Made by a program: the position numbers and the translations under genes. A stretch of 64,000 nucleotides of DNA, from the NCBI RefSeq assembly GCF_016026235.1, contig NZ_CP065613.1; one strand, 5' to 3'. This stretch comes from Escherichia coli. Its GTDB lineage: Bacteria > Pseudomonadota > Gammaproteobacteria > Enterobacterales > Enterobacteriaceae. Position 1 is the stretch's first letter; each line of letters begins with the position of its first letter. The notes beneath the pieces are model-generated. The model was not told the origin of the DNA, made no database searches, and saw only the letters and a program-made list of their open reading frames with translations. Shown piece by piece: positions 5,604 to 60,227 of the stretch.

Positions 5604-6608
<1,005 letters not shown>

Positions 6609-6654
6609 CAAAAGCAATTTTTCCGGCTATCTGTATACAAAAACGCCGCAAAGT

Positions 6655-6668
6655 TTGAGCGAAGTCAA
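6655..6668 (+). promoter_or_regulatory. FNR box (TTGAG-N4-GTCAA) centred about 42 bp upstream of fnrS
   Basis: Near-consensus FNR half-sites with class II spacing relative to the FnrS 5' end. Confidence 0.5.
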
Positions 6669-6703
6669 TAAACTCTCTACCCATTCAGGGCAATATCTCT
6701 CTT

Positions 6704-6825
6704 GCAGGTGAATGCAACGTCAAGCGATGGGCGTTGCGCTCCATATTGTCTTACTTCCTTTTTTGAATTACTGCATAGCACAATTGATTCGTACGACGCC
6801 GACTTTGATGAGTCGGCTTTTTTTT
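6704..6825 (+). ncRNA. fnrS: FnrS small regulatory RNA
   Basis: Sequence GCAGGTGAATGCAACGTCAAGCGATGGGCG… ending in hairpin GCCGACTTTGATGAGTCGGC plus T8 matches my memory of FnrS; lies between zntB and dbpA as in K-12. Confidence 0.8.
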
Positions 6826-6882
6826 GCCTGTTATTTATCAGCGTCTACCCTTTAAGAGTCCACCCAATGACCGGAGGGAAAT

Positions 6883-7053
6883 ATGACGACACTTATTTAT
6901 TTGCAAATTCCTGTCCCTGAACCGATTCCTGGCGATCCTGTTCCAGTGCCCGATCCGATCCCTCGCCCGCAACCCATGCCTGACCCACCACCCGATGAAG
7001 AACCGATTAAATTGTCGCATCGTGAGCGTAGATCTGCGAGGATACGCGCCTGA
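6883..7053 (+). CDS. Candidate 56-aa proline-rich small protein
   Basis: ATG 7 nt after GGAGGG; sequence MTTLIYLQIPVPEPIPGDPVPVPDPIPRPQPMPDPPPDEEP…; below the ORF-track length cut-off. Confidence 0.35.
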   Translation: MTTLIYLQIPVPEPIPGDPVPVPDPIPRPQPMPDPPPDEEPIKLSHRERRSARIRA

Positions 7054-7085
7054 TGACTTTGCGTCGATGACCACGAGAATAGATT

Positions 7086-8459
7086 GTGACCGCTTTTTCT
7101 ACCCTGAATGTTTTGCCTCCCGCCCAACTCACGAACCTTAATGAGTTGGGTTATTTAACCATGACGCCGGTGCAGGCCGCCGCGCTTCCGGCGATCCTTG
7201 CCGGAAAAGATGTTCGCGTGCAGGCGAAAACTGGCAGCGGCAAAACGGCGGCTTTTGGCCTCGGCTTGTTACAGCAAATTGATGCGTCGCTATTTCAAAC
7301 CCAGGCTTTAGTGCTGTGTCCTACGCGTGAACTGGCGGATCAGGTGGCAGGTGAATTGCGTCGGCTGGCGCGTTTTCTGCCAAATACCAAAATTTTGACG
7401 TTGTGCGGTGGTCAACCGTTCGGTATGCAGCGTGATTCGTTGCAACATGCGCCGCATATTATCGTGGCAACGCCGGGGCGTTTGCTGGATCACCTGCAAA
7501 AAGGCACGGTATCACTGGATGCGTTGAATACGCTGGTGATGGATGAGGCCGACCGCATGCTGGATATGGGATTTAGCGATGCCATTGATGATGTCATCCG
7601 TTTTGCGCCAGCATCTCGACAGACGCTTCTGTTTTCGGCAACCTGGCCGGAAGCCATCGCTGCAATCAGCGGACGAGTGCAACGCGATCCTTTGGCGATT
7701 GAAATTGACTCAACAGATGCTTTGCCACCCATTGAACAACAATTTTATGAGACATCCAGCAAAGGCAAAATTCCTCTGTTGCAACGGTTATTAAGCTTGC
7801 ATCAGCCATCCTCTTGCGTGGTGTTTTGCAATACCAAAAAAGATTGTCAGGCTGTCTGCGACGCGCTGAATGAAGTAGGGCAAAGTGCATTGTCGTTACA
7901 CGGCGATCTGGAGCAACGCGATCGCGATCAGACCCTGGTACGTTTTGCTAACGGTAGCGCCCGTGTACTGGTCGCGACTGATGTTGCTGCGCGTGGTCTG
8001 GATATAAAATCGCTTGAGCTGGTGGTGAACTTTGAGCTGGCGTGGGACCCTGAAGTTCATGTACATCGCATCGGCCGTACAGCTCGTGCAGGAAATAGCG
8101 GTCTGGCGATCAGTTTCTGTGCTCCGGAAGAAGCACAGCGGGCCAATATCATTTCTGACATGTTGCAGATAAAACTTAACTGGCAAACACCGCCAGTTAA
8201 TAGTTCCATTGTGCCGCTGGAAGCAGAAATGGCAACGTTGTGTATCGATGGCGGGAAAAAAGCCAAAATGCGCCCGGGTGATGTATTAGGTGCACTGACA
8301 GGAGATATCGGGCTTGATGGCGCAGATATTGGCAAAATCGCCGTGCATCCGGCGCATGTCTATGTCGCGGTCCGTCAGGCTGTTGCTCATAAAGCATGGA
8401 AACAGTTACAGGGCGGGAAGATTAAAGGAAAAACGTGCCGGGTGCGGTTATTAAAATAA
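7086..8459 (+). CDS. dbpA: ATP-dependent RNA helicase DbpA (DEAD-box)
   Basis: 457 aa; AKTGSGKT Walker A, VMDEAD box, SAT, HRIGRTAR motifs. Confidence 0.9.
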   Translation: MTAFSTLNVLPPAQLTNLNELGYLTMTPVQAAALPAILAGKDVRVQAKTGSGKTAAFGLGLLQQIDASLFQTQALVLCPTRELADQVAGELRRLARFLPNTKILTLCGGQPFGMQRDSLQHAPHIIVATPGRLLDHLQKGTVSLDALNTLVMDEADRMLDMGFSDAIDDVIRFAPASRQTLLFSATWPEAIAAISGRVQRDPLAIEIDSTDALPPIEQQFYETSSKGKIPLLQRLLSLHQPSSCVVFCNTKKDCQAVCDALNEVGQSALSLHGDLEQRDRDQTLVRFANGSARVLVATDVAARGLDIKSLELVVNFELAWDPEVHVHRIGRTARAGNSGLAISFCAPEEAQRANIISDMLQIKLNWQTPPVNSSIVPLEAEMATLCIDGGKKAKMRPGDVLGALTGDIGLDGADIGKIAVHPAHVYVAVRQAVAHKAWKQLQGGKIKGKTCRVRLLK

Positions 8460-8507
8460 TGAAATGTTGAATTGCCGGGTGCAAGAGTAAACATCTTATT
8501 CGGGATT

Positions 8508-8577
8508 GCCGGATGCGACGCTGGCCGCGTCTTATCCGGCCTCCATAAGAGTAGCCCGATACGCTTGCGCATCGGGC
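8508..8577. repeat. REP/BIME-like palindromic units
   Basis: GCCGGATGCGACGCTGGCCGCGTCTTATCCGGC followed by GCCCGATACGCTTGCGCATCGGGC between convergent dbpA and ttcA. Confidence 0.5.
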
Positions 8578-8587
8578 GCTATCCTGG

Positions 8588-9523
8588 TTATTTCACTTCA
8601 ACCACATTCAGCCGTAACTCATCCAACTGATTTTCATCTTCTTCTGGCTGCCAGCCCGCCGGTTGTAGTGGGATCTCTTCGCGATCAAACGCCAGATCAC
8701 CCCCGTTAACCACTTCAGAACCGTGGGTGATGCCTTTGAAATCGAACAGGTTGGTATCGCACAGATGCGACGGCACCACATTCTGCATCGCGCTGAACAT
8801 CGTCTCGATACGCCCTGGATAACGTTTATCCCAGTCCCGCAACATGTCAGCAATCACCTGACGTTGCAGGTTAGGCTGTGAACCGCACAGGTTGCACGGA
8901 ATAATCGGGAACGCTTTTGCATCGGCAAATCGCTGAATATCTTTCTCGCGGCAGTAGGCCAGCGGACGAATAACGATATGTTTGCCATCATCGCTCATCA
9001 GTTTCGGAGGCATACCTTTCATCTTGCCGCCGTAGAACATATTTAAGAACAACGTTTGCAGGATATCGTCACGATGGTGGCCCAACGCGATCTTCGTCGC
9101 CCCCAGTTCCGTTGCGGTGCGATAAAGGATACCGCGACGTAGCCGAGAACACAGTGAGCAAGTGGTTTTGCCCTCTGGAATCTTCTCTTTCACGATACCG
9201 TAAGTGTTCTCTTCAACAATCTTGTACTCAACGCCCAGCTTTTCAAGATACTCGGGCAGAACGTGTTCCGGGAAGCCCGGTTGCTTTTGATCGAGGTTAA
9301 CAGCCACCAGCGAAAAATTGATTGGCGCGCTTTGCTGCAAATTGCGCAGAATCTCCAGCATGGTATAGCTGTCTTTACCCCCGGAGAGGCAAACCATGAT
9401 GCGATCGCCTTCTTCAATCATATTGAAGTCAGCAATGGCTTCGCCCACGTTACGACGCAGACGTTTTTGTAATTTGTTCAGATTGTATTGTTCTTTCTTT
9501 GTAATTTGTTGATTTTCTTGCAT
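8588..9523 (-). CDS. ttcA: tRNA 2-thiocytidine synthase TtcA; its 5' end is supplied by the prophage junction
   Basis: 311 aa with SGGKDS PP-loop and Cys motifs; start [17 protein letters not shown] overlaps the att core. Confidence 0.9.
9474..9499. other. Prophage att core, left copy (TTGTTCAGATTGTATTGTTCTTTCTT)
   Basis: 26-bp sequence identical to 57929..57954; sits in the first codons of ttcA next to the integrase gene. Confidence 0.65.
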
Positions 9524-9574
9524 TATTTCAGTTCTCTGGTACTAAATGGGGCAAATTGGGGGCAAACTTTGCAA

Positions 9575-10810
9575 CTACGATAACCGCGCATTCAACATGG
9601 CTATCTGTTCGTCGTTCATGTCATCAATCCACATACCGTAAATTTCATACACCATTTGCGCAGTTTCATGCCCCATCTGGCTGGCTATAAATGCCGGGTT
9701 CGCTCCTGCCGTCAACAGCCAGCAGGCAAAAGTATGTCGCGTATGGTACGGATTACGGCGGCGAATACCAGCACGTTTTACTGCTGCATTCCATCTCGCA
9801 CCCAAACTGCTTACCGAGTAATAAGGTTTCTGTTTTCCGTTACACATCCTGGGCATGAAAACAAAATGCAGTTTTTGCTTTTCGGTTCTGCCGTACTCCC
9901 GATGATAAAAAGTGATTTCGCTTTTGCGATGATGCCCGGTCAGTTTGTATTGCTCCTTCAGTGCTTCAAGAGCTGGCTGTAGTAATGTTACCGTCCGGAT
10001 CCCGGCATTTGTTTTTGGGGGACCGAACATATCAAGTATCGTCAGGTTTCTTCTGACATTCACAATTCCCTTCTCGAAATCCACATCCTCCCACGCCAGA
10101 GCTGCCAGTTCCCCGTGACGAAGCCCGGAGTAAACGGCAAATTTCCACAAGTTTTGGCTCTGTCCTTTTTCACTTTCCATTAATGCATTGAATTCTGTTT
10201 TAGATAACGGGTCAGGCTTTATTCTGTTTCGCTGTAATTTTTTTACTCCTTCAAATGGTTTGGTTGATATAAATCCCGACTGATACGCAAAACGTAACAG
10301 CGAACAGAGCAGGGCGATATAGTTATCAACTGTGCGCACGGTTCTTCCTTTTTTGTTGGATCTTGGATTATCCAGGTAAAGCGTTTCTCCATGCAGCAGT
10401 TCATTCCGGTAGTTTAAGATATCGCTATAACGAATATATGATATCGGGGTACTTTCACAAATTATTATTCTGAGTGTTTTTAATTGTGATTTCGTTTTCT
10501 TCATTGTGTTTGTTGTTAACTCTGTCTCTTTAATTTTTGTCCAGATATCACAAAGCTCCCCGAACGTTTTTATGACTCTCGTTGTCACCATTTTTGCCCC
10601 AGTGCTGGACTGGGGAAAACGTCTTAAATACTCAAATTCACCGGAGTTTATTTCATGAACTATCAGCGCTCTTAAATTTCCGGCCTTTTTAATATTACTG
10701 TTTGTAATCTCCCAGCCTTTTAATGTTTCCCGACATCGTTTTCCTCGAAACATGAACCAGATGCGAATGTTTCTACCTCTAATCTCGACACCTGTTGGTA
10801 ATTTAGACAT
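9575..10810 (-). CDS. Phage integrase (tyrosine recombinase), IntR-like
   Basis: 411 aa; C-terminal catalytic region (…HTRHTFACWLLTAGANPAFIASQMGHE…YGMW) typical of lambda-family integrases; adjacent to the att site. Confidence 0.85.
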   Translation of the reverse strand: MSKLPTGVEIRGRNIRIWFMFRGKRCRETLKGWEITNSNIKKAGNLRALIVHEINSGEFEYLRRFPQSSTGAKMVTTRVIKTFGELCDIWTKIKETELTTNTMKKTKSQLKTLRIIICESTPISYIRYSDILNYRNELLHGETLYLDNPRSNKKGRTVRTVDNYIALLCSLLRFAYQSGFISTKPFEGVKKLQRNRIKPDPLSKTEFNALMESEKGQSQNLWKFAVYSGLRHGELAALAWEDVDFEKGIVNVRRNLTILDMFGPPKTNAGIRTVTLLQPALEALKEQYKLTGHHRKSEITFYHREYGRTEKQKLHFVFMPRMCNGKQKPYYSVSSLGARWNAAVKRAGIRRRNPYHTRHTFACWLLTAGANPAFIASQMGHETAQMVYEIYGMWIDDMNDEQIAMLNARLS

Positions 10811-10811
10811 A

Positions 10812-11027
10812 TCATGAGTCTTTGATAAACTGATTTATCTTTGGATAGTTGTACCAGATAATCCCTCGTTTGCTGTCTGGCTTACCTAAAGGAGATACTC
10901 GTTTGAAGTGGAAGCCCTCCACCCAACAGTTCTGGCGGTATGCTTCAATTTGTCTGGCCCCCAGACCAGTGCGAAGCATCAGGCCGTATTCAACCATCCA
11001 CTCTTCATTAAAGATTACTTGTGCCAT
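10812..11027 (-). CDS. Excisionase-like protein
   Basis: Small basic protein directly upstream of int ([16 protein letters not shown]…); ORF extends to 11051 but the start is probably the internal Met. Confidence 0.6.
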
Positions 11028-11126
11028 CGCATCACCTCTGGCAGGCGCCAATGTTAGACTGAAATTGACGCCTGATGTTGATTATTAATAATCAGCTATG
11101 AAGTTCTAATCTGGATATAATGAAAT

Positions 11127-33363: not shown

Positions 33364-35443
33364 TGCTGAATCAGGAAACCGCAAAGGCAGCACGAACCGA
33401 TTCAGGTTATATCCTTCGCGCACCAAGACGAATGCGGGTTGCTGATGCCGTTGCTCAGTATATGCGGGTGCCCATGGGGCAGGGAACTCAGTCCCGTGGG
33501 ATCCGCTGGTGGCACCGTATGTTATTGAGCCGATGAACTGCCTGGCCTCGCGTGAATACGACGCAGTGATATTTGTTGGCCCGGCACGAACCGGCAAGAC
33601 TATCGGCCTGATTGACGGCTGGGTGATTTACAACGTGATTTGCGATCCTGCTGATATGCTGATCATTCAGATGACGGAGGAAAAAGCCCGCGAACACTCC
33701 AAAAAACGACTCGCCAGAACGTTTCGCGTCAGCCCGGAAGTGGTCAGTCGCCTGAGTCCGAACAAAAATGACAACAACGTTTATGACAGAACATTCCTTG
33801 CTGGCAACTACCTGAAAATCGGCTGGCCGTCAGTCAATATCATGTCCTCATCAGATTATAAATGCGTCGCGCTGACGGATTATGACCGTTTTCCGGAAGA
33901 TATTGATGGTGAGGGGGATGCTTTCTCTCTTGCCTCAAAACGTACCACAACATTTATGTCCAGTGGTATGACGCTGGTGGAGAGTTCCCCCGGCAGGGAT
34001 GTGAAGGATGTGAAATGGCGACGGACTTCACCGCATGAGGCTCCACCAACCACGGGGATACTGTCGCTCTATAACCGTGGCGATCGCCGTCGCTGGTACT
34101 GGCCCTGTCCACACTGTGGTGAGTATTTTCAGCCCTGCGGCGATGTGGTTGCTGGTTTCCGTGATATTGCCGATCCCGTGCTGGCAAGTGAGGCGGCTTA
34201 TATTCAGTGTCCTTCCTGTTCAGGACGGATTATGCCTGAACAAAAACGTGAGCTGAACGGACGTGGGGTCTGGTTGCGGGATGGTGAATCCATCAATGCG
34301 GATGGCAGTCGTTATGGTGATCCCAGGCGTTCACGTATTGCGTCATTCTGGATGGAGGGTCCGGCAGCTGCTTACCAGACACTCTCGCAACTCGTTTACA
34401 AACTGCTTACTGCAGAACAGGAATACGAGACAACCGGAAGTGAAGAAACACTCAGGGCGGTTATCAACACCGACTGGGGATTACCTTATCTTCCCCGCGC
34501 CAGCATGGAGCAACGAAAAAGTGAACTGCTTGAGCAGCGGGCAGAGCCTGTTCCTCCCCGCTGCGTGCCGGATGGTGTTAATTTCCTGGCGGCGACAGTG
34601 GATGTGCAGGCGGGACGTCATCGCCGTTTTGTGGTTCAGGTAACGGGTTATGGTTGCCGTGGCGAACGCTGGATTATTGATCGTTACAACATCACGCAGT
34701 CATTGCGTTGTGACAACAACGGAGAAAGCCTGCGAATTGATCCTGCTGGTTATCCTGAGGACTGGGATGTCCTGCTGACGGATGTTTTTCATAAAAGCTG
34801 GCCGTTGGCCTCCGATCCTTCTCAACAAATGCGACTGATGGCAATGGCGGTGGACTCCGGCGGTGAAGACGGGGTCACTGATAATGCCTATAAATTCTGG
34901 CGTCGTTGCCGTCGTGATGGCCTTGGTAAACGTATTTACCTGTTTAAGGGCGACAGCATCCGGCGCGCAAAACTGATCACCCGTACATTCCCTGATAACA
35001 CCGGACGAACGGGCCGACGGGCGCAGGCCGCAGGTGATGTGCCGCTCTGGCTTCTTCAGACGGATGCCCTGAAAGACCGGGTGAATAACGCGTTATGGCG
35101 TGACTCGCCAGGTCCCGGCTATGTGCATTTCCCTGACTGGCTGGGGAGCTGGTTTTACGACGAACTGACGTATGAAGAGCGGAGCAGTGACGGGAAATGG
35201 AGTAAGCCGGGTCGAGGTGCCAACGAAGCTTTTGACCTGATGGTGTATGCCGAGGCTCTGGTCATTCTGCATGGTTACGAGAAAATTCAGTGGCCGGATG
35301 CGCCGGAATGGGCATGCAGGGAAACCTGGCTGGAGCGTGTCAGGGACGATGCCGGACTGTCAGCCTCGCCGGAGCCGGTATCCGTGTCCGTTAAAAAAAG
35401 AAACGAAAAAAAGTGGTGCCTGATGAAGAAAACCCATGGGTGA
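33363..35443 (+). CDS. Terminase large subunit (lambda gpA-like)
   Basis: Walker A VGPARTGKT and CPHCG zinc-finger-like motif; TAATG coupling with SD GAGGAG at 33363, but the frame then needs +1 C near 33493..33495; alternative in-frame ATG at 33446. Confidence 0.75.
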
Positions 35444-35672: not shown

Positions 35673-37176
35673 TGGCAATTCTTGATGATGTGATTGGTGT
35701 TTTTTCACCTGGCTGGAAAGCTGCGAGATTGCGCTCAAGGGCATTAATTCGTGCCTATGAGGCAGTGAAGCCTACTCGTACACATAAAGCCCGGCGGGAA
35801 AATCGTTCTGCCGACCAGCTCAGTAAGTACGGTGCAGTTTCCCTGCGGGAGCAGGCTCGTTTTCTGGACATCAATCATGATCTGGTAATCGGTGTTTTCG
35901 ACAAACTTGAGGAACGGGTGATTGGTGCAAAAGGGATCGTTGTCGAACCCCAGCCATTACTGAAGAACGGTGATATAGCCACAGAGCTGGCAATGATTAT
36001 CCGTCGCTTGTGGGTGGAATGGTCTGTCAGTCCGGATGTGACCGGGCAGTATACGCGCCCCATGCTCGAGCGTCTGCTGCTGCGTACCTGGTTACGTGAT
36101 GGTGAAGTGTTTGCCCAGCTGGTTCGTGGTGCCGGCGGCGGGCTGGTGCGGACTGCTGGCGTGCCTTTCTGGATCGAGGCAATGGAGCCGGATTTTGTGC
36201 CCATGCTCAGTGATGAATCTGTGGGGTTGAATCAGGGTGTTTTTCTGGATGACTGGGGCAGACCGAAAAAATACCTGGTTTATAAAAATCATCCGACTAC
36301 CGGGCGGCTGAGTGATACCAAAGAGATCGTTGCCGAAAATATGGTGCATCTGAAATTTACCCGTCGTCTGCATCAGACGCGTGGTACATCCATGTTGTCA
36401 GGTGTGCTGATGCGGATCAGTGCGCTTAAGGAATATGAAGATGCTGAGCTGACAGCGGCGCGTGTTGCTGCGGCTCTGGGGCTGTATATCCGTAAAGGAG
36501 ATGGGCAGGATTATGAAGACGCCACGATAAATAAAGATAATGACCGGGAACTGCATATCACCCCTGGCATTATTTATGACGATTTGCGCAAGGGGAAGAT
36601 ATTGGCATGGTCAAATCTGATCGGCCCAATCCTAACCTTGAAACTTTTCGTAACGGGCAGCTGCGTGCGGTGGCCGCAGGCAGTCGTATGAGTTTTTCCA
36701 GTGCGGCGCGCAATTACAACGGTACCTACAGCGCTCAGCGACAGGAGCTGGTCGAGTCCACTGACGGGTATCTGATCCTGCAGGACTGCTTTATTGGTGC
36801 TGTAACCCGTCCCGTGTACCGGACGTGGCTGAACATGGTGGTAGCAGCAGGTCTGCTGAAAATCCCGTCGGATGTGGATATGAAAACGTTGTGTAACGCA
36901 ACATATTCCGGTCCGGTCATGCCGTGGATTGATCCGGTTAAGGAGGCTGAGGCCTGGAAAATCCAGATTCGCGGTGGAGCGGCGACAGAATCAGACTGGG
37001 TGCGAGCAGGTGGGCGTAATCCGGATGATGTCAAACGTCGGCGCAAGGCTGAAATTGATGAAAACCGCAAGCTGGGTCTGATATTTGATACCGATCCGGC
37101 CAGTGATAAAGGAGGCAGCAGTGTCGCAACGAAACGACAGGAGCCGCAGCACACCGACGGCCAGTCCGAAGAATAA
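35672..37176 (+). CDS. Portal protein, reading frame broken once
   Basis: 339-aa N-terminal ORF and 189-aa C-terminal ORF in the -1 frame; adding one G to the G4 run at 36592..36595 joins them (…LRKGEDIGMVKSDRPNPN…). Confidence 0.75.
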
Positions 37177-39180
37177 TTCCTGGTTCAGGATGCAGGCAGG
37201 TCACCAGAGTGACGCGGATATTTATATTTATGACGAGATTGGTTTCTGGGGTGTTACGGCGAAGCAGTTTATCAGCGATCTGAATGCACTGGGCGATATC
37301 ACCCACATTAATCTCCATATCAATTCACCGGGTGGCGATGTCTTTGAAGGCATCGCCATTTTTAATGCACTGAAAACACATGGTGCGTCCATTACCGTTT
37401 ATGTCGACGGTGTGGCGGCATCAATGGCGTCGGTCATTGCGATGGTGGGAAACCCGGTCATTATGCCGGAAAACACCTTCATGATGATTCATAAACCATT
37501 TGGCTTTACGGGCGGTGATGCGGAGGACATGCGCACCTATGCCGACCTGCTCGATAAAGTTGAGGCGGTTCTGTTACCCGCTTATGCACAGAAAACCGGG
37601 AAAACCACCGATGAAGTTGCTGCCATGCTGGCGGATGAGACCTGGATGTCCGGTGCCGAATGTCTGGCACATGGATTTGCTGATCAGGTGACGCCAGCCG
37701 TTAAGGCAATGGCATGTATTCAGTCAAAACGTACAGAGGAATTTAAAAAGATGCCGGAATCCATTCGAAACATGATTACTCCGCCACGCAACAGTGCAAC
37801 GCGTGAACCTGAAAACAAAAATACTGCATCTCAGACACAGGAGCAGACTACGGCTCAGGTTGCCACAACCGCGACCACCACAAATGCACCTTCCGCAGAT
37901 GAAAGCAGTATCCGTGCGCAGGTACTGGCAGAGCAAAAAGCACGTGTGAGTGGTATTAATGAACTGTTTGGTATGTTTGGCGGGCGTTATCAGACATTGC
38001 AGGCCAGTTGTCTTTCCGATCCGGAGTGCTCGCTTGAGCAGGCCCGTGAGAAATTACTTAACGAAATGGGTAAGGAATTTTCACCATCAAATAAAAATAC
38101 CCCGGCCCATATTTATGCCGGAAACGGTAATTTTGTGGGGGACGGGATCCGCCAGGCGCTGATGGCGCGTGCCGGGTTTGAAAAAACTGAACGTGATAAT
38201 GTCTACAACGGGATGACCCTGCGTGAATATGCCCGTATGTCACTGACTGAACGGGGTATTGGGGTTTCCGGTTATAACCCGATGCAGATGGTCGGGGCAG
38301 CGTTCACACACAGTACGTCTGACTTCGGTAATATTCTGCTGGATGTTGCGAACAAAGCCATTCTGCAGGGCTGGGAAGATGCCCCTGAAACCTATGAACA
38401 GTGGACGCGGAAAGGTCAGCTGTCTGATTTTAAAATTGCCCATCGTGTGGGTATGGGGGCTTCAGTGCTCTGCGTCAGGTGCGTGAAGGAGCGGAATATA
38501 AATACGTTACTACCGGAGATAAACAGGCCACGATTGCACTGGCGACCTATGGTGAACTGTTCAGTATCACCCGTCAGGCCATTATCAACGATGATCTGAA
38601 TATGCTGACCGATGTCCCGATGAAACTGGGCCGTGCGGCAAAATCCACTATTGCCGATCTGGTTTATGCCATTCTGACGTCTAACCCGAAAATCTCCACA
38701 GATAATGTAAGTCTGTTCGATAAAGCGAAACATGCAAACGTACTGGAGAGCGCTGCAATGGACGTGGCATCGCTGGATAAAGCCCGCCAGTTGATGCGTG
38801 TTCAGAAAGAGGGTGAGCGTCATCTGAATATTCGTCCTGCGTTCGTACTGGTACCGACGGCGATGGAGTCTGTTGCTAACCAGGTCATTCGCTCCTCAAG
38901 TGTCAAGGGGGCTGACATTAACGCCGGTATTATTAACCCGGTGAAAGATTTTGCGACCGTTATTGCAGAGCCTCGTCTTGATGATAACAGCCAGACCACC
39001 TTCTACCTGGCTGCGTCCAAAGGCTCCGATACGATTGAAGTGGCTTATCTCAACGGTGTGGATACGCCATATATTGATCAGATGGAGGGCTTCAGTGTGG
39101 ATGGCGTGACAACGAAAGTGCGTATTGACGCTGGTGTCGCGCCAGTTGATCACCGCGGTCTGGTGAAATGTACGGCGTAA
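37121..39180 (+). CDS. Prohead protease (ClpP-like) fused to scaffold and major capsid protein, reading frame broken once
   Basis: N-terminal ClpP-like block (DIYIYDEIGFWGV…INSPGGDV…MIHKP); capsid-like C-terminus in the -1 frame from 38479; bridged by adding one G to the G5 run at 38455..38459; GTG start with SD GGAGG. Confidence 0.65.
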
Positions 39181-47786: not shown

Positions 47787-51198
<3,412 letters not shown>

Positions 51199-51267: not shown

Positions 51268-51867
51268 ATGCGTAAACTTTATGCCGCCATTTTGTCCGCA
51301 GCCATTTGTCTGGCCGTATCCGGTGCGCCTGCATGGGCATCTGAACATCAGTCCACGCTGAGCGCGGGGTATCTTCATGCCTCGACGAACGTTCCCGGCA
51401 GCGATGATCTTAACGGGATTAACGTGAAATACCGTTATGAGTTTACGGACACACTGGGGCTGGTGACGTCATTCAGCTATGCAGGAGACAAGAATCGCCA
51501 GCTTACCCGTTACAGCGATACCCGCTGGCATGAAGATTCCGTGCGTAACCGCTGGTTCAGCGTGATGGTGGGGCCGTCTGTGCGCGTGAATGAATGGTTC
51601 AGCGCGTATGCGATGGCGGGTATGGCTTACAGCCGTGTGTCGACTTTCTCCGGGGATTATCTCCGCGTAACTGACAACAAGGGGAAAACGCACGACGTGC
51701 TGACCGGAAGTGATGACGGTCGCCACAGCAACACGTCTCTGGCGTGGGGAGCTGGCGTGCAGTTTAACCCGACCGAATCCGTGGCCATTGACCTTGCTTA
51801 TGAAGGTTCCGGCAGTGGCGACTGGCGCACTGACGGTTTCATCGTGGGTGTCGGTTATAAGTTCTGA
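51268..51867 (+). CDS. lom: Lom/Ail-family outer membrane beta-barrel protein
   Basis: 199 aa with signal peptide and C-terminal …GVGYKF; classic moron position after J. Confidence 0.8.
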
Positions 51868-51930
51868 TTAGCCAGGTAACACAGTGTTATGACAGCCCGC
51901 TGGTTCAGGCGGGCTTTTTGTGGGGTGAAT

Positions 51931-53343
51931 ATGGCAGTAAAGATTTCAGGTGTACTGAAAGATGGGGCGGGTAAACCTGTCGTAAATTGTGCGATTGAAC
52001 TGCGGGCCAGAAGAACCAGTCCGACCGTTGTGGCACACGTTGTTGCCACTTGCGTGACGGACAATAACGGTGCTTATGTGATTGAGGCTGAGCCGGGGTA
52101 TTACGAGGTTGCGCTTCACTGTAACGGCTGGCAGCCAACCCGTGTCGGGGATATTGATGTGGCACCGACTGATGCACCGGGGACACTGAACGCGTTTCTG
52201 AATGCACCAAAGGATGGTGATTTACGTCCGGAGGTGATGAAGCGCTTTGAGGAAATGGTGGCGCAGGCGCAGCAGAGTGCCGGGGCTGCAGCCGGAAACG
52301 CACAGCAGACGGCGCAGAATGTGGCGGCAGCCGCAACGGCCCGTGATGATGCACAACGTTTTGCGGAGAATGCCAGACAGGATGCAGTTGCCACTGCAGA
52401 GGACAGAAAGGCCACTGCGGAAGACGTGAAAAGCACGGGGAAAAACGCCGTCTTATCCGGTCAGCGTGCACAGGCAGCCGCAGGTTATGCCCGCGCAGCA
52501 GAACAGGCCAAAAATGACATTGATGCTGCGCTGACCGGCACTCTGAAAACGGCTAACCATCTGTCAGAAATCGCAGCAGCAGGCGAAAAGGCACAACAGA
52601 AGTCCCGGGATAATCTGGGGCTGAAAAGTGCGGCCACGATGGAAGCACAGAGCGACATTTACGACCGGACAAAAGGCCGTCTGGCGATACCCGGCGCATT
52701 CGGCTTTGGGTGTGCTTTTCTGCCTGAAGATGTTATCCGTTTTGACACTAAGAGTGATTTCCTGGCCTGGGTAAGGAATGCGCTGCCAGGTGAGTATTCC
52801 GTTGCTGGCCGCCTGGGCATCATACCCGACACACGGTTTGAAGGGGTGCTCAGCATCCGGTGGACTGATGCACGCCCTGAGACAACAGAACCGCGGTACA
52901 GAGCCAAATCCCTTACTTTTTACGGCATTAACGGCCCCATTTATCACACCCGCTACTGCTACTGGCCCATATCCAGACTGACTGACTGGGTGAAAATAAA
53001 TATAACCACAGAAGATATTATTTACAGAATCGTGGCGAGCTCTGTCTGCAACAGATGGGGAGACCCTGACATTGGCGGGCTGATTATTGCTGCGTACCAG
53101 GGAGAAGCTGACGGTGATAAAGTCATCAGACTTGTCAGGGGGCAGTCATACAGAGGCTCACGACTGGGACCGGTGGGGATTTCAGTGCCCAGTACTCCCA
53201 CCGGAACGCATATAGCATACCCACAATTTTTCATTACGGGATGTTCAGAGCATTCATTACCGGGGTCATATTGCGCCCTGTCCGGGGTGCCGGATGCACA
53301 TGTCTCTGGCGCAATGCCCGGGCTTTTTATTCGCACATCGTGA
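51931..53343 (+). CDS. Side tail fibre protein (Stf-like)
   Basis: N-terminus MAVKISGVLKDGAGKPV… as in lambdoid Stf; 471 aa from this Met. Confidence 0.7.
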   Translation: MAVKISGVLKDGAGKPVVNCAIELRARRTSPTVVAHVVATCVTDNNGAYVIEAEPGYYEVALHCNGWQPTRVGDIDVAPTDAPGTLNAFLNAPKDGDLRPEVMKRFEEMVAQAQQSAGAAAGNAQQTAQNVAAAATARDDAQRFAENARQDAVATAEDRKATAEDVKSTGKNAVLSGQRAQAAAGYARAAEQAKNDIDAALTGTLKTANHLSEIAAAGEKAQQKSRDNLGLKSAATMEAQSDIYDRTKGRLAIPGAFGFGCAFLPEDVIRFDTKSDFLAWVRNALPGEYSVAGRLGIIPDTRFEGVLSIRWTDARPETTEPRYRAKSLTFYGINGPIYHTRYCYWPISRLTDWVKINITTEDIIYRIVASSVCNRWGDPDIGGLIIAAYQGEADGDKVIRLVRGQSYRGSRLGPVGISVPSTPTGTHIAYPQFFITGCSEHSLPGSYCALSGVPDAHVSGAMPGLFIRTS

Positions 53344-53353
53344 GGAATGCACC

Positions 53354-53917
53354 GTGGAAATTAAAAAAATCATTAATCCCCGTTATACCGAAAGTGGCGC
53401 AGTAGACTGTGACGTTTTTTTTGACGACAGGGACCAGGCAGTTCCCTACACAGCCACCGCTGATGATGTCGCACCGACGGGTCAGCAAATCTGGCAGGAA
53501 CTGCAAAGTGGCAAATGGGGTGAGATAGCCCCATTCACTGTGACACCAGAAATGCTGGAAGCGGCCAGAGAGGCCAGACGTCAGGAAATTGAAGCATGGC
53601 GCGCAGAACAGGAGGCGAAGCCGTTCACGTTTGAATGGAACGGTCGTATCTGGAATGCTGGTCCCGACTCACTGGGCCGCCTGTCCCCGGTAGTCATGCT
53701 GGCAAAATCTGTCACAGCACAAACACATATGGCGTGGAGCGATGCCGATAATCAGCAGGTGAAACTGTCGATGCCGGAACTGGAAGAACTGGCGGCAGCA
53801 ATGGTGCAGGCGCAGGTCGATCGCAACGATGAGATTTATCGCCGTCAGCGGGAGCTGAAGGAAGAGCTGAATAGTCTGAAGGATTTGAATTCGGTTAGGA
53901 ATTTTATCGTGGAATAA
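53354..53917 (+). CDS. Tail fibre assembly protein (Tfa-like)
   Basis: ORF after stf; GTG at 53354 preceded by GAGGAA; ORF-track start at 53294 overlaps the stf 3' end. Confidence 0.55.
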   Translation: MEIKKIINPRYTESGAVDCDVFFDDRDQAVPYTATADDVAPTGQQIWQELQSGKWGEIAPFTVTPEMLEAAREARRQEIEAWRAEQEAKPFTFEWNGRIWNAGPDSLGRLSPVVMLAKSVTAQTHMAWSDADNQQVKLSMPELEELAAAMVQAQVDRNDEIYRRQRELKEELNSLKDLNSVRNFIVE

Positions 53918-54117
53918 CAGAAGCTGCGGCACGTCGTATGCAGGAACGTGCCGCGGTTGGCTGGTAAACTTTCGATAGTGCGAGTATTGAATGATTTCTA
54001 GGCGTTATCGATTTTACGTATTTTTTGCATGATAGAATTCGTACCTCCTCCCAACGACCTTCCATGGCTTTCCGGACTTCTGTAGGCTGGCGGACGATGC
54101 TGTCCTCGGATGTTGTG

Positions 54118-54975
54118 CTAATTGGGTGATAACAGATCCTGTGTATGGGCGTTTCCCTTTGTGCGTGCGTTGATGCTGGTAACGGTAAACGTCATGATGA
54201 ACACGACCGCGAATAAGACGACAATCGTCGGAGCTGGTGCGCTGTCGATAAAAAAGGACAGCCAGACACCAGTCATTGACACTATTACCGATATGCCAGT
54301 CGCCAGTAGGAGCGCAATATGAAAGCGTTGTGTCAGGAGTACTGCAATGGCGCCAGGCGCAATGAGCAGAGAAATAGAGAGAATGATACCTACTGCTTTC
54401 AGCGTCGCCACAATGGTCAGGGAAACCATGCACAGCAGCCCATAATGCAGCCATCTCGTATGCAAACCGCTTACCTGCGCCTGTTGATAATCAAAGCTGA
54501 ACAGCAAAAAATCCCGCCATTTTACGCTAATAACAAGTGTAACCAGCCCGGCAATAATCACCGTCTGGATTATATCGCCGATGGTTATCCCGAGCATGTC
54601 GCCGAAAAGAATATGGTCAAGATGTACGTCTGGTTTGATTGCAATATACAAGATCAGACCTGCGGCAAACATGCCAGAAAAAACAATCCCCATAACTGTA
54701 TCTTGCTTGATTCGGCTGTTGTCTTTCAGGTATCCCGTCGCCACCGCGCAGAATACTCCGGCGACGAATGCCCCTGTAGCCAGAGGTAACCCCAGAATCC
54801 AGGTAAGCACGATGCCAGGAAAAACCGCATGACTCATCGCGTCACCCATCAGTGCCCAACCTTTCAGGACCAGAAAGACCGACAGCAGCGCACAGGGTAT
54901 GGAAACTACCAGTGAAATCAGCAGTGCGTGACTCATAAAGGTGAACTGCAGTGGCTCCAGTAATAATGCCATCAT
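54118..54975 (-). CDS. sitD: Mn/Fe ABC transporter permease SitD
   Basis: 285-aa polytopic membrane protein; last gene of a four-gene operon with overlapping stops and starts. Confidence 0.8.
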   Translation of the reverse strand: MMALLLEPLQFTFMSHALLISLVVSIPCALLSVFLVLKGWALMGDAMSHAVFPGIVLTWILGLPLATGAFVAGVFCAVATGYLKDNSRIKQDTVMGIVFSGMFAAGLILYIAIKPDVHLDHILFGDMLGITIGDIIQTVIIAGLVTLVISVKWRDFLLFSFDYQQAQVSGLHTRWLHYGLLCMVSLTIVATLKAVGIILSISLLIAPGAIAVLLTQRFHIALLLATGISVIVSMTGVWLSFFIDSAPAPTIVVLFAVVFIMTFTVTSINARTKGNAHTQDLLSPN

Positions 54976-55829
54976 GAGCGATCCTCCAGCGCTTTATGCG
55001 CACGCCGACGATTTGCCAAAAGTCCATGGGTGGGCGCAAATACAAATGCTAAAAGAAACAGCAGTGTCTGCGCCACCACGATGATTCCACCTGTCGCGCC
55101 GTCCAGAAAGTAACTGACCCACGCGCCGAGGAAACTGGTTACACTGCCAATAGTTACAGCAATTATGAGCAGGCGGGGAAAACGATCGGTTAACAACCAT
55201 GCTGTTGCACCGGGAGTCACCACCAGACAGATCACCAGAAAGGCACCAACCGTTTGCAGCGCCGCAACGGTCGAAACCGACAGCAGGGTGAAGAAGAGGA
55301 TTTTTAATCTGCCCGGATGTAATCCAATAGCACGGGCGTGATTCTCGTCGAAAAAGGTCACCATAAGATCTTTCCATTTGAAAAAAAGCACGATGATCGA
55401 GAGAATGCCAATGATAGTGAGTTGCAGGATATCCGCCGGATCGATTGCCAGAATATTGCCCAGGACGATGGTCTGAATGTTCACGGATGTCGGGTTCAAT
55501 GACACCATAAACAGCCCCAGGCCAAAAAAGGACGAGAAGATCAGGCCGATGATGGCATCTTCTTTTAAGCGGGTGCGTTGGTTAAGAAACAGCATGCTGC
55601 CCGCTGCCAGTCCGCCGGAAAAGAAGGCTCCCAGAGAAAACGGAAGCCCCAGCATATATGCCCCCGCAACACCCGGGACAATAGAGTGCGACAGCGCATC
55701 GCCAATCAGCGACCAGCCTTTTAGCATCAGATAGCATGACAGGAAAGCGCAGAGACCGCCGACCATTGCCGAGACCCACATCGCATTGAGCATATATTCA
55801 TAGCTGAAGGGTTCCAGTAGCACGTTCAT
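54972..55829 (-). CDS. sitC: Mn/Fe ABC transporter permease SitC
   Basis: 285-aa membrane protein, paralogous to the next permease. Confidence 0.8.
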
Positions 55830-56653
55830 CTTGCTTCCCTCTGCACCGCTGACGGTCGATGTGCCACAAAAGGGCGTTCATCGTCAGTAATAATGCTTTC
55901 TTCCGAGCCGTTAAGTGTGACATGGCGCAGTACGCCGCTAAAAGCCAGCTCCAGGTTCTCGGCTGTAAAAGTGGTGTCTGTCGGCCCGCTTGCCAGGACG
56001 GTGCCTTTGACCATGACCGTATAATCGCAAAATGTCGTGACTGAGCCGAGATTGTGCGTTGAGACAAGCATCGTTTTGCCTTCCGCGCGTAACTCCCTCA
56101 ACAGGCTGATGATTTTCGCTTCGGTTTTCACATCAACGCCGGTAAAAGGTTCATCCAGCAGGATCACATCACCCTGCTGTGCAATCGCTCTCGCCAGAAA
56201 GACGCGTTTCTTTTGTCCACCGGAAAGCTCGCCGATTTGACGATGGCGAAAATCCACCATATCGACACGTTCCAGCGCATCGGTGACAATCTGACGATCC
56301 CTCTTTTTGGCTATACGCAACATACCCATATGCCCATAGCGGCCCATCATCACCACATCTTCCACCAGTACAGGAAATGACCAGTCAACCTCTTCTGACT
56401 GAGGGACGTAGGCAACCAGGTTTTTCTGTAGCGCCTGTCGCGTGGGAATACCCAGAACAGATATCTTTCCGCTGGTCAGACGCACAAATCCCATAATCGC
56501 TTTAAACAACGTCGATTTTCCGGAACCGTTTACCCCAACCAGAGCGGCAATAGATCCACTTGGTACTGTGAAGGATGCATCGCGCAGTGCTGTGTGCCCG
56601 TTACGCCAGGTGACAGTAACATCATTAACGACAATGCCTGCAGATTGCATCAT
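55826..56653 (-). CDS. sitB: Mn/Fe ABC transporter ATP-binding protein SitB
   Basis: GVNGSGKST Walker A, LSGGQ signature, ILLDEP Walker B. Confidence 0.85.
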
Positions 56654-57567
56654 TATTTCTCCCTTTTCCCGGCTTTAATTCCCTGTACCAGCGTACTGGT
56701 AGTAACCTTAAGAAGGTCGATATACGTAGGTACCGGGCCGTTTTCTGTGCTCAGGGAATCGACATAGAGCACACCGCCGTAGTGTGCGCCGGTTTCACGC
56801 GCAACCTGACGCGCTGGTTTATCGGAAATCGTACTCTCGCTAAAGACTGCCGGGATATGATTTTTCTTAACTATATCAACAACCTTACGTACCTGCTGCG
56901 GTGTTCCTTGTTGATCGGCATTAATCGGCCACAGATAAAGCTCTTTTAGCCCCAAATCGCGTGCGAGATAAGAAAAAGCCCCTTCACTGGTGACCATCCA
57001 TCGCTGATTCTCAGGGAGTTCCGTAATCTGCTTACGCAGGGGGGCAAGGGTTTGGGTAATCTTGGCTTTATAAGTATCGGCATTACGTTGGTAGGTTTGT
57101 GCATTTGCCGGATCGTATTTTATCAACGCATCACGAATATTATCGACGTAAATCAGAGCATTATCTGGCGACATCCATGCATGGGGATTAGGTTTGCCCT
57201 CATAGGGTCCTTCGGTGATCCCTACTGGCGTCACACCCGAAGAGACAATTACTTCTGGAACCCCATTGAGATGCTGGTAAAAGCGTTGGAACCACAATTC
57301 CAGATTCATACCATTGGCGAGAATCAGTTGTGCCCCCTGCGCACGTTTAATATCGCCAGGGGTAGGCTGATACTCATGAATTTCTGCACCAGGCTTGGTT
57401 ATGGATGAGACTTCTGCAGCATCTCCAGCCACGTTTTTGGCCATATCCGCGATGATGGTAAATGTTGTAATGACCTTGAATTTTTCAGTTGCACTTGCCT
57501 GAAATGCGATCGAGCAGGTGAGGGCGAGGCACCCCAAGAGCATGGTTACTTTTTTTATTGAGTGCAT
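56653..57567 (-). CDS. sitA: Periplasmic Mn/Fe-binding protein SitA
   Basis: 304 aa with signal peptide; closely resembles SitA as I recall it ([21 protein letters not shown]…). Confidence 0.85.
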
Positions 57568-57600
57568 AATTTAGTACCTATAGTGAGCAAAATTAGAACA

Positions 57601-57620
57601 AACATAGCAACGGCTATGTT
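57601..57620. promoter_or_regulatory. MntR-box-like inverted repeat (AACATAGC-N4-GCTATGTT) upstream of sitA
   Basis: Perfect 8-bp arms. Confidence 0.5.
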
Positions 57621-57641
57621 TTATAGCATAACCTATACAAA

Positions 57642-57662
57642 ATGAAAATAATTATCATTAAC
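57642..57662. promoter_or_regulatory. Fur-box-like site (GAAAATAATTATCATTAAC)
   Basis: Similar to the Fur consensus GATAATGATAATCATTATC. Confidence 0.5.
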
Positions 57663-57928
57663 AGCTTTGAGGCCTAAAACAGGGATTAGGTTGTTTCCTG
57701 CTGGCGACATGATATTGAGGAAAAAAGTAGAGCAGCTATTAGGCTTTGAAATGACTTTATGAGGAAAATTGTTGATGGCAAAAATGGGGCAAAACGCTGT
57801 AGAAGGGGCAAAAAAGGGGCAAAAAAAGAGTGGGTTATCGTAGCTTATTGTTGTCGCTGATAATGTTTAACATATTGAAAAATAAATAAAATACTTATGA
57901 GTCAGATAGTTGTGATTTTTGCCCTTAC

Positions 57929-57954
57929 TTGTTCAGATTGTATTGTTCTTTCTT
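57929..57954. other. Prophage att core, right copy
   Basis: Identical 26 bp to 9474..9499. Confidence 0.65.
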
Positions 57955-57978
57955 GCTAATTTCTTGATTTTGCGACAT
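57929..57978 (-). pseudogene. ttcC-like remnant (original 5' end of ttcA displaced by the prophage)
   Basis: Minus-strand ATG at 57978 encodes [17 protein letters not shown], matching the TtcA N-terminus, then runs into prophage DNA. Confidence 0.55.
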
Positions 57979-58153
57979 TTAAAAGCGACTCAATTCGTTA
58001 TATGGCATCAGAAGAGTATGCGTCATGCCGGAACGCCCAGCATAAGAAATCTGATATAAAAACTGTGGCGTGTATGGTACGGATTAGAGGGGAAAATGTC
58101 AGCACATTTGCGAAATGAATCAAAAAGCCCGCAGCAATGTGCGGGCGTTAGTG

Positions 58154-58669
<516 letters not shown>

Positions 58670-58728
58670 TTAGATCAAAGGAGGAAGAATAAGCAGAAAA
58701 AGCCCGCCATAACAGCGGGCAGGAGGAT

Positions 58729-59862: not shown

Positions 59863-60089
59863 TGAATAAATCCTTTAGTTATTTTATTTGCCTTTTATCC
59901 CCATTTCGGGGAGTGAAAACATCCTAAAGGAGAAGTTCAGTTAGCCGATAAATATCATTTGTTACGCCTTAAGTAAAACCTTAATCAAAAAATTCCTCTG
60001 AAATGATAATAAGTCTGGTGAATGTATCGAAGATAATACATACAAAATAAAAATTATACTTTTAATTTTCTATACGTTATTCTGCGCGG

Positions 60090-60198
60090 GTTATATGCCT
60101 TTATTGTCACAGATTTTATTTTCTGTTGGGCCATTGCATTGCCACTGATTTTCCAACATATAAAAAGACAAGCCCGAACAGTCGTCTGGGCTTTTTTT
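60090..60198 (+). ncRNA. micC: MicC small regulatory RNA
   Basis: GTTATATGCCTTTATTGTCACAGATTTTATTTTCTGTTGGGCC… with terminal hairpin and T-run matches my memory of MicC; lies between ompN and ydbK. Confidence 0.8.
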
Positions 60199-60227
60199 TA
60201 GAATTGGATAATCCTTATCCAGAGCAT

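Follow-up and report, generated by a model that had tools for sequence, protein, structure and literature searches.

A sitABCD manganese/iron importer operon as cargo of a lambdoid prophage at ttcA in Escherichia coli

The sitABCD operon and its upstream region

Four co-directional open reading frames, in the order sitA-B-C-D on the minus strand, occupy positions 54118-57567 of the 64,000-nucleotide stretch of Escherichia coli DNA analysed here (the window), as read from the ORF list and its translations (Table 1). The reading frames are coupled: the sitA stop and the sitB start overlap by 1 base, sitB and sitC by 4 bases and sitC and sitD by another 4 bases, and the gene order is binding protein, ATPase, permease, permease. 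Over its 3450 bp the operon is 100.0% identical to the annotated sitABCD of E. coli O121. In addition, RefSeq DNA 99.9% identical to sitA is annotated as SitA, and near-identical RefSeq DNA carries the annotation SitC. These ORFs, the identity to O121 and the equivalog match of SitB described below confirm the complete four-gene ABC importer that had been named in the original prediction.

Table 1. Coordinates of the features in the window
Feature	Position	Strand	Basis
attL core, within ttcA 5' end	9474-9499		26-bp exact direct repeat
Lambdoid prophage, 48,455 bp, ttcA / Rac site	9500-57954		att repeat, empty-site reconstruction, phage gene matches
Tyrosine integrase, 411 aa, Rac IntR type	9575-10810	-	PHROG 1 (integrase), E 5.5e-68
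Side tail-fibre gene	51889-53343	+	PHROG 2636 (tail fibre)
Tail-fibre assembly-like gene	53294-53917	+	PHROG 1141 (tail fibre)
sit cassette	54098-57704	-	blastn, 98.4% identity to phage 4A7, boxes included
sitD, second inner-membrane permease, 285 aa	54118-54975	-	ORF; family matches; RefSeq annotation
sitC, inner-membrane permease, 285 aa	54972-55829	-	SloB/AztB family matches; RefSeq annotation
sitB, ABC ATPase, 275 aa	55826-56653	-	NCBIfam NF011630; motifs
sitA, periplasmic Mn/Fe-binding protein, 304 aa, N-terminal signal peptide	56653-57567	-	ORF; YfeA match; RefSeq annotation
MntR operator (predicted), palindrome AAACATAGC-N4-GCTATGTTT	57600-57621		33 nt upstream of sitA ATG
Putative sigma-70 promoter: -35 TTTTCA 57648-57643, 17-nt spacer, -10 TATAAA 57625-57620	57620-57648	-	By-eye reading
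Fur box (predicted), GTTAATGATAATTATTTTC	57644-57662	- (sit strand)	Consensus match, 16/19
Three GGGGCAAA repeats, candidate integrase arm-type sites (function inferred)	57786-57823	+	Between sit promoter and attR
attR core, TTGTTCAGATTGTATTGTTCTTTCTT	57929-57954		26-bp exact direct repeat of 9474-9499
ttcC remnant, displaced ancestral ttcA 5' end	57955-57978	-	Translation

SitB was the only one of the four proteins to reach an NCBIfam equivalog cut-off. It scored 593.7 bits (cut-off 393) against NF011630, the manganese/iron ABC transporter ATP-binding protein, over residues 1-273 of 275, and a Walker motif, the LSGGQ signature and the Walker B stretch ILLDE are all readable in its translation. 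No specific NCBIfam model was matched by SitA, SitC or SitD. The SloB and AztB models, both for metal ABC permeases, recognised SitC at E 1e-55, under their specific cut-offs. SitA fits a cluster A-I substrate-binding protein. Its best solved relative is Yersinia pestis YfeA (5uxs; E 3.7e-125, residues 24-297), and SitA residues H64, H129, E195 and D270 align with YfeA 76, 141, 207 and 282, which we take to be the metal site of the YfeA structures. These matches support the assignment of 54118-57567 to sitABCD, of the SitABCD/YfeABCD family of Mn-Fe ABC importers. Transport of Mn2+ and Fe2+ has been reported for orthologues (review PMC3852070), and by analogy with those loci the operon would be expected to carry both metals.

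Upstream of sitA we found the two sites that had been proposed, a perfect N4-spaced repeat and a Fur-box-like site, and both fall within 63 bp directly upstream of the gene. The arms of the palindrome are 9 nt long and 100% complementary, and its core repeat, AACATAGC-N4-GCTATGTT at 57601-57620, has 0 mismatches. It is the sole match in the window even with 2 mismatches allowed, where 0.01 would be expected by chance. The Fur box, scored against the consensus GATAATGATAATCATTATC, is likewise the sole match in the window at up to 3 mismatches, again with 0.01 expected by chance. The MntR half-sites of the K-12 mntH promoter are identical to those of the sit palindrome, and the order Fur box, MntR box, start codon is common to the sitA upstream region and K-12 mntH. 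The MntR box does not vary among the close sit copies examined, which came from phages, plasmids, chromosomes and IMG/VR; the Fur box is retained in all of them, with 2-3 mismatches in the other copies, and the bases neighbouring the two boxes vary. A full-text literature search with the MntR box sequence returned nothing relevant, and the identification of this box therefore rests on the comparison with K-12 mntH and on a review (PMC3852070, citing Patzer & Hantke 2001, Ikeda 2005 and Runyen-Janecky 2006) according to which Mn-MntR represses MntH and SitABCD. Mathieu et al. (2020, PMC6969025) describe a fur box in front of each sit operon carried by a phage. The comparisons thus support both the MntR-like and the Fur-like box as real and statistically unexpected, and published work on orthologous loci suggests that Fur and MntR would repress sit.

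Read by eye, the region also contains a putative sigma-70 promoter, on which reading the Fur box would cover the -35 hexamer and the MntR box would start within the -10. A consensus scan misses this promoter because its rule demands T at -10 position 6; the matches of the promoter/terminator scan were no more numerous than in shuffled sequence, and it found no intrinsic terminator 3' of sitD. Rfam placed neither a manganese riboswitch nor any other known RNA within the sit leader, its sole match being MicC at 60087-60207.

These data also bear on a different reading of the operon, in which it imports another metal such as zinc, in the manner of ZnuABC or AztABC, and the boxes are chance look-alikes without regulatory function. 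Although SitA, SitC and SitD do match AztC/AztB and ZnuA/ZnuB models, they do so under the cut-offs in every case, whereas SitB passes the Mn/Fe equivalog. SitA is nearer to YfeA and MntC than to ZnuA (E 3.7e-125 versus about 1e-12) and keeps H/H/E/D at the positions aligned with the four YfeA residues. With each box expected 0.01 times per window, both lying in the same short region and the MntR half-sites being those of mntH, we regard zinc import with meaningless boxes as very improbable.

Boundaries and condition of the carrier prophage

The operon lies inside a prophage, as had been proposed together with a comparison to genomes that lack the element. When 9500-57954 was removed in silico, an uninterrupted ttcA-uspF junction was obtained. 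Of 5,426 complete E. coli genomes, 2,486 (46%) contain this junction as one unbroken alignment, the best of them matching at 100.0% over 1446 bp. Because the rebuilt empty junction occurs naturally, the att repeat is not coincidental and sit is inside the mobile region. The phage provides a substitute 5' end for ttcA, and the remnant of the displaced end is annotated in K-12 as the pseudogene ttcC, adjoining uspF.

Within these boundaries the tail-fibre genes lie on one side of sit and the integrase arm sites on the other. The tail-fibre pair, the last late genes before sit, is on the plus strand and ends 200 bp before the sitD stop, while the operon, in the opposite orientation, lies 362 bp inside attR, in agreement with the predicted arrangement. 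The GGGGCAAA repeat occurs in nine copies in the window versus 3.2 expected, and five of the nine (at 9548, 9559, 57786, 57805 and 57816) lie at most about 145 bp from an att core.

The empty-site reconstruction refutes the alternative of a coincidental att repeat, with sit as a separate island beside the prophage. This alternative draws on the fact that the cassette has a history of its own, with other integrases and on plasmids, and is thus a separable module. However, it was removal of exactly the prophage interval that restored the natural junction found at 100% identity in close to half of the complete genomes; sit is followed on its right by arm-type repeats and a Rac-type P-arm; a search for transposon-like ends found no direct or inverted repeat of at least 9 bp linking 53920-54130 and 57660-57800; and in the deposited genome of phage 4A7 the cassette has tail-fibre genes on one side and int on the other. 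A separate island is in our judgement hardly credible.

The phage genes identified comprise integrase, terminase, protease, tape measure, J, Lom and tail fibres. The late genes are 92% identical to those of phage mEp460, and the homology to mEp460 spans the late genes and does not include sit. The position of sit between the att sites supports its description as a prophage moron, and it is dispensable in the sense that the relatives mEp460 and K-12 Rac are without sit at this place.

Compared with the mEp460 proteins, five late genes (terL, portal, protease/capsid, tape measure H and J) carry -1 frameshifts caused by single-base deletions. Most of the frameshifting indels are homopolymers called one base short: G5 in place of G6 at 38459, G4 in place of G5 at 33479 and 44570, T5 in place of T6 at 50236, and A4 in place of A5 at 50285. 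This carrier copy may be defective or unable to move, or the assembly may be error-prone. Packaging of sit into virions from this copy is doubtful because essential late genes are frameshifted.

One alternative prompted by the frameshifts is that the carrier has become a cryptic prophage, non-inducible and decaying, in which sit is a domesticated chromosomal island, kept under selection while the phage genes rot. Such decay would account for five late genes each being split between frames by single-base deletions while sit matches intact copies elsewhere at 100% identity and the chromosomal flank genes dbpA, ttcA, uspF, ompN and ydbK showed no frameshift. Most of the indels, on the other hand, are under-called homopolymers, of the kind that errors in sequencing or assembly classically leave, and the att sites, the integrase and the arm repeats are intact. 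We see decay as a serious contender whose chances are somewhat below even; it is compatible with the main account of the identity and arrival of sit.

Carriers of the cassette and proposed mechanism

The prediction that sit is carried by phages was borne out by the presence of the same cassette in 28 deposited phage genomes and on IMG/VR viral contigs. In the annotation of phage 4A7, the sole one of the 28 examined, the cassette is found between the tail-fibre genes and int. Among complete E. coli genomes sit is present in 2,383 of 5,426 (44%), with about 1,680 chromosomal and 1,060 plasmid copies; the cassette is carried by about 1,000 plasmids of the ColV type. The ColV-type plasmid pEC244_2 shares 54090-57782, followed by IS1, with the right flank at reduced identity; the shared right flank is too small to show which way the transfer went.

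In plasmid pAPEC-O2-ColV, a complete attP-type junction comes after sit, with P-arm, core, P'-arm and the int 3' end. This stretch leads directly into an N run and then into GAATTCACTAGTGATT, which we take to be pGEM-T polylinker, and an attP-type junction is absent from all other sit plasmids. We considered the junction as a sign of phage origin and rejected it, since the N run, the polylinker and its uniqueness make a gap-closure artefact probable.

A broader scenario is one in which the cassette is a constant-ended module swapped among lambdoid phages of differing integrases, the ColV plasmids obtained it from such a phage, phages are the primary source of chromosomal and plasmid sit, and selection here keeps the cassette while the prophage decays. 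We offer this scenario tentatively and consider it, taken together, rather unlikely.

Our preferred explanation, which we hold as a whole with high confidence, is that sitABCD is a host-regulated Mn/Fe-importer cargo in the b-region of a lambdoid prophage at ttcA. The b-region is the non-essential stretch from the tail-fibre genes to attP. In the proposed mechanism SitA would capture metal in the periplasm via the His/His/Glu/Asp site, SitC and SitD would form the channel, and SitB would provide ATP hydrolysis. The orientation of sit is opposite to that of the phage late genes and host-repressor boxes lie upstream, the promoter hexamers being read by eye only; opposed to the late genes and with a putative promoter of its own, the operon would therefore be expressed from the repressed prophage. 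Of the two host repressors, Fe-Fur would occupy the box that covers the putative -35 hexamer, and Mn-MntR the palindrome across the -10 hexamer and the start region, so that the cassette would be on only when iron and manganese are scarce. Work on orthologous loci suggests that the cassette would be expressed in lysogens and would confer a benefit under metal limitation or oxidative stress.

The phage-borne arrangement of sitABCD is already known and has been in print since about 2010 (PMC2808357, PMC6969025, PMC9928086). Since both the principle and the particular arrangement are in the literature, no open question becomes newly testable, and the main value of the analysis lies in annotating the locus correctly. 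The locus illustrates clearly how a temperate phage spreads a virulence or fitness factor for metal uptake that is already wired into the host Fur and MntR regulons. To the published record we add base-precise att boundaries, the insertion point of the cassette relative to the sit-less Rac, and a warning about the late-gene frameshifts. Corrections to the original prediction concern only novelty and the state of the carrier: the arrangement is published and the late genes are frameshifted.

Comparison with known systems

Several prophages and phages carry sitABCD in a comparable setting. Prophage 042p3 (ROD21) of EAEC 042 also has sitABCD as cargo, at its tail end (Chaudhuri et al. 2010, PMC2808357); its insertion site is listed there as a 15-bp direct repeat, compared with the 26-bp core here, a difference in listed length. 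Of the lambda phages from the infant gut, 70% have sitABCD, in each case accompanied by a fur box (Mathieu et al. 2020, PMC6969025); the temperate phages named in that work include 4A7, 1H12 and ev207. Like the element described here, 4A7 has the cassette in the same place and orientation, from the tail-fibre genes to attP/int, but it integrates at icd (an icd fragment adjoins int), whereas the window has a Rac-type integrase and the ttcA site; furthermore, an IS has inserted between sit and the tail-fibre genes of 4A7. Misson et al. (2023, PMC9928086) found the sit genes of prophage Perceval, from AIEC LF82, transcribed in the lysogen at levels 4-13-fold above those of the prophage background. 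Virion production and host infection have been shown for Perceval (PMC9928086), while the copy described here has frameshifted late genes.

The cryptic prophage Rac of K-12 occupies the attachment site used here, bordered by ttcA to the left and by the ttcC remnant and uspF to the right, and window positions 7000-11075 are 98.8% identical to the K-12 segment dbpA-ttcA-intR-xisR. The P-arm of Rac contains GGGGCAAA repeats as here. Homology to Rac ends at 53960 and resumes at 57776, so that where the window has a 3.8-kb cassette (53961-57775) the sit-less Rac has 37 bp; the Rac genes near that point are pinR, ynaE and ynaM.

ColV/ColBM virulence plasmids such as pAPEC-O2-ColV and pEC244_2 carry the same operon and boxes at about 97-98% identity. 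On these plasmids the cassette is flanked by IS1 and other IS elements, in contrast to the tail-fibre genes and attP that flank it here. In a wider circle, Salmonella SitABCD, Shigella flexneri Sit and Yersinia YfeABCD belong to the same transporter family as the sit operon of the window. The Salmonella sit locus presumably adjoins SPI-1, outside any phage, and the Shigella sit region is reportedly an IS-riddled phage-like island.

Prophage boundaries at ttcA

It had been proposed that a sitABCD manganese/iron uptake operon is carried here as prophage cargo. A 26-bp exact direct repeat, TTGTTCAGATTGTATTGTTCTTTCTT, delimits the element: the left copy falls within the 5' end of ttcA and is directly followed by the integrase gene, and beyond the right copy lie a 24-bp remnant of the ttcA start in its ancestral form and then uspF, ompN, micC and ydbK. 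We rebuilt the empty site in silico by joining 8800-9499 to 57955-58700, and found the uninterrupted ttcA-uspF junction as a single piece in 2,486 of 5,426 complete E. coli genomes, at best with 100.0% identity over 1446 bp. Because the rebuilt junction occurs naturally in these genomes, the reading in which the att repeat is coincidental and sit lies outside the mobile region is ruled out. The operon ends 362 bp inside attR of a prophage of 48,455 bp.

Translation of the remnant allowed its ancestral ttcA start to be compared with the phage-supplied one: the phage integrates inside the 5' end of ttcA and its substitute N-terminus (at 9474-9523) replaces the ancestral one (the ttcC remnant, within 57929-57978), so that ttcA remains intact (311 aa). 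Rac, the cryptic prophage of K-12, has the same substitute-N-terminus arrangement and occupies exactly this site, with ttcA-intR-xisR on its left and ttcC-uspF on its right; its int-xis module is 98.8% identical to that of the window. Of the nine GGGGCAAA copies in the window, five are found no more than about 145 bp from one or other att core (3.2 copies would be expected across the window). These repeats also occur in Rac, and they probably serve as arm-type sites to which the Rac-type integrase binds. The chromosomal context right of the prophage is ordinary: ompN and ydbK flank the MicC sRNA gene (Rfam RF00121, 121 bits), just as they do in K-12.

The carrier has a lambda-like late region (terminase, portal, protease/capsid, tape measure, J, Lom, side tail fibre and tail-fibre assembly by PHROG) that shares 92% identity across 18.5 kb with mEp460, a phage without sit. 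Alongside sit, the prophage has a second moron, the classical lambda gene lom. Compared with the mEp460 proteins, terL, portal, protease/capsid, tape measure H and tail-tip J are split into at least two frames (J reads as 821 aa plus 275 aa), the switches being caused by single-base deletions, mostly in G, T or A homopolymers. Either the prophage is cryptic, having truly decayed while sit stays intact, or the source assembly under-called homopolymers in the late-gene region; we saw no comparable damage in sit or in the flanking chromosomal genes.

Features of the prophage and the sit region (window coordinates)
Feature	Position	Strand	Detail
ttcA	8588-9523	-	311 aa
attL	9474-9499		left repeat copy
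GGGGCAAA repeats	9548-9566		two, beside attL
Integrase	9575-10810		411 aa; PHROG 1
Homopolymer deletion	33479		G4 for G5
Frame-disrupting site	~36553-36588		among the single-base deletions
Homopolymer deletion	38459		G5 for G6
Homopolymer deletion	44570		G4 for G5
Homopolymer deletion	50236		T5 for T6
Homopolymer deletion	50285		A4 for A5
lom	51268-51867		Ail/Lom outer-membrane protein; PHROG 108, E 7e-110; between J and side tail fibre
Hairpin	53926-53954		9-bp stem, GCGGCACGT ... ACGTGCCGC; just past last tail-fibre gene
sitD	54118-54975	-	285 aa
sitC	54972-55829	-	285 aa
sitB	55826-56653	-	275 aa
sitA	56653-57567	-	304 aa
MntR-like palindrome	57600-57621		9-nt arms
MntR-like box	57601-57620		AACATAGC-N4-GCTATGTT
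Putative -10	57625-57620	-	TATAAA
Putative -35	57648-57643	-	TTTTCA
Fur-like box	57644-57662	-	16/19 positions
GGGGCAAA repeats	57786-57823		three, beside attR
attR	57929-57954		right repeat copy
micC	60087-60207		Rfam RF00121

The sit importer and its promoter region

ORF calling on the window gave four ORFs in one direction (54118-57567, minus strand), with stop-start overlaps of 1, 4 and 4 bases at sitA/B, B/C and C/D. SitB scored above the cut-off of the NCBIfam equivalog for a manganese/iron ABC ATP-binding protein (593.7 bits against 393), and SitA, SitC and SitD matched metal ABC binding-protein and permease families with scores under the specific cut-offs. The nearest solved structure to SitA is Yersinia pestis YfeA (E 3.7e-125), and SitA H64, H129, E195 and D270 align with YfeA 76, 141, 207 and 282, which we take to be the metal site. 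Over its 3450 bp the operon shows 100.0% identity to the sitABCD annotated on an E. coli O121 chromosome. The transporter genes are identified as sitABCD and complete. By analogy with orthologues, SitA would capture Mn2+/Fe2+ in the periplasm, and SitCD and SitB would carry out import.

Both predicted regulatory sites are present upstream. The perfect repeat AACATAGC-N4-GCTATGTT is the sole match in 64 kb with up to 2 mismatches (0.01 expected, from shuffles), and the Fur-consensus match is likewise unique in the window (0.01 expected). We tested the MntR-like label directly against the K-12 mntH promoter, which has GAAACATAGCAAAGGCTATGTTTTAG with half-sites identical to those of the sit box. 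In mntH a Fur-like GATAATCATT element precedes the MntR half-sites, so that both promoters share the order Fur box, MntR box, start codon; according to a review, MntH and SitABCD are both repressed by Mn-MntR (PMC3852070). Across all the close sit copies collected, from four loci on E. coli chromosomes or plasmids, the sit-carrying phage 4A7 and five contigs of IMG/VR, the MntR box does not change and the Fur box is kept with 2-3 mismatches, while adjacent bases vary.

A putative promoter with a 17-nt spacer was read by eye on the sit strand; it was absent from the output of a consensus promoter scan. At these hexamers, Fur would cover the -35, and MntR the -10 and the start region. An Rfam search found no riboswitch in the sit leader. 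If the promoter is repressed by Fe-Fur and Mn-MntR, as in orthologues, the lysogen would have one more metal importer at its disposal, but only when metal is limiting, which may aid it during oxidative stress and inside the host.

A discrete cassette in phages and plasmids

Phage 4A7 has exactly 54098-57704 in common with the window (98.4%), likewise between tail-fibre genes and int; it integrates at another site, an icd fragment adjoining its int. The ColV-type plasmid pEC244_2 has 54090-57782 in common, followed by IS1. In the sit-less Rac, homology ends at the conserved hairpin near 53960 and restarts at 57776, with 37 bp in place of about 3.8 kb, and no repeats of at least 9 bp were found flanking the cassette. 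Thus sit forms a discrete insertion, placed after the late operon ends and before the attP P-arm begins, a position equivalent to the non-essential b-region of the lambda map. The hairpin, which lies 37 bp from the P-arm in Rac and is separated from it here by the cassette, is followed by no T run and is therefore not a canonical intrinsic terminator.

We found sit in 2,383 of the 5,426 complete E. coli genomes, at 1,682 chromosomal and 1,060 plasmid places; in 476 genomes it adjoins uspF, as in the window. Further copies are on about 1,065 PLSDB plasmids, in 28 phage genomes on deposit and in several viral contigs of IMG/VR; isolated phages and plasmids share one and the same cassette.

In pAPEC-O2-ColV (NC_007675.1, 7584-8040), another ColV-type plasmid, next to sit comes an entire attP-type junction of a ttcA-type phage (P-arm, core, P'-arm and int 3' end), then an N run and GAATTCACTAGTGATT, which resembles the pGEM-T polylinker. 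Among the sit plasmids of PLSDB this is the only one with the junction, which therefore probably arose as an artefact of gap closure; a genuine junction would record the capture of phage DNA by a plasmid. SitA/YfeA homologues just 60-63% identical to the window SitA are encoded on three other viral contigs. In one of them, IMGVR_UViG_2654588048_000013 (about 5800-6864), a near-perfect Fur box (GATATTGATAATCATTATC, 1 mismatch) and no MntR palindrome lies upstream of the homologue. Given this divergence and the lone Fur box, phages may carry this family of transporters in forms other than the E. coli cassette, under different regulation.

Comparison with known sit loci

The original observation is confirmed and its interpretation supported. 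Regulation of sit by Fur and MntR was reportedly shown in Shigella flexneri by Runyen-Janecky et al. in 2006 and in Salmonella by Ikeda et al. in 2005, and Fisher et al. are said to have called the S. flexneri sit region a phage-like island in 2009. Prophage-borne sitABCD is an arrangement already known and published: in Perceval, a prophage of AIEC LF82 that yields infectious virions, the sit genes are listed as morons and are transcribed 4-13-fold over the prophage background (PMC9928086).
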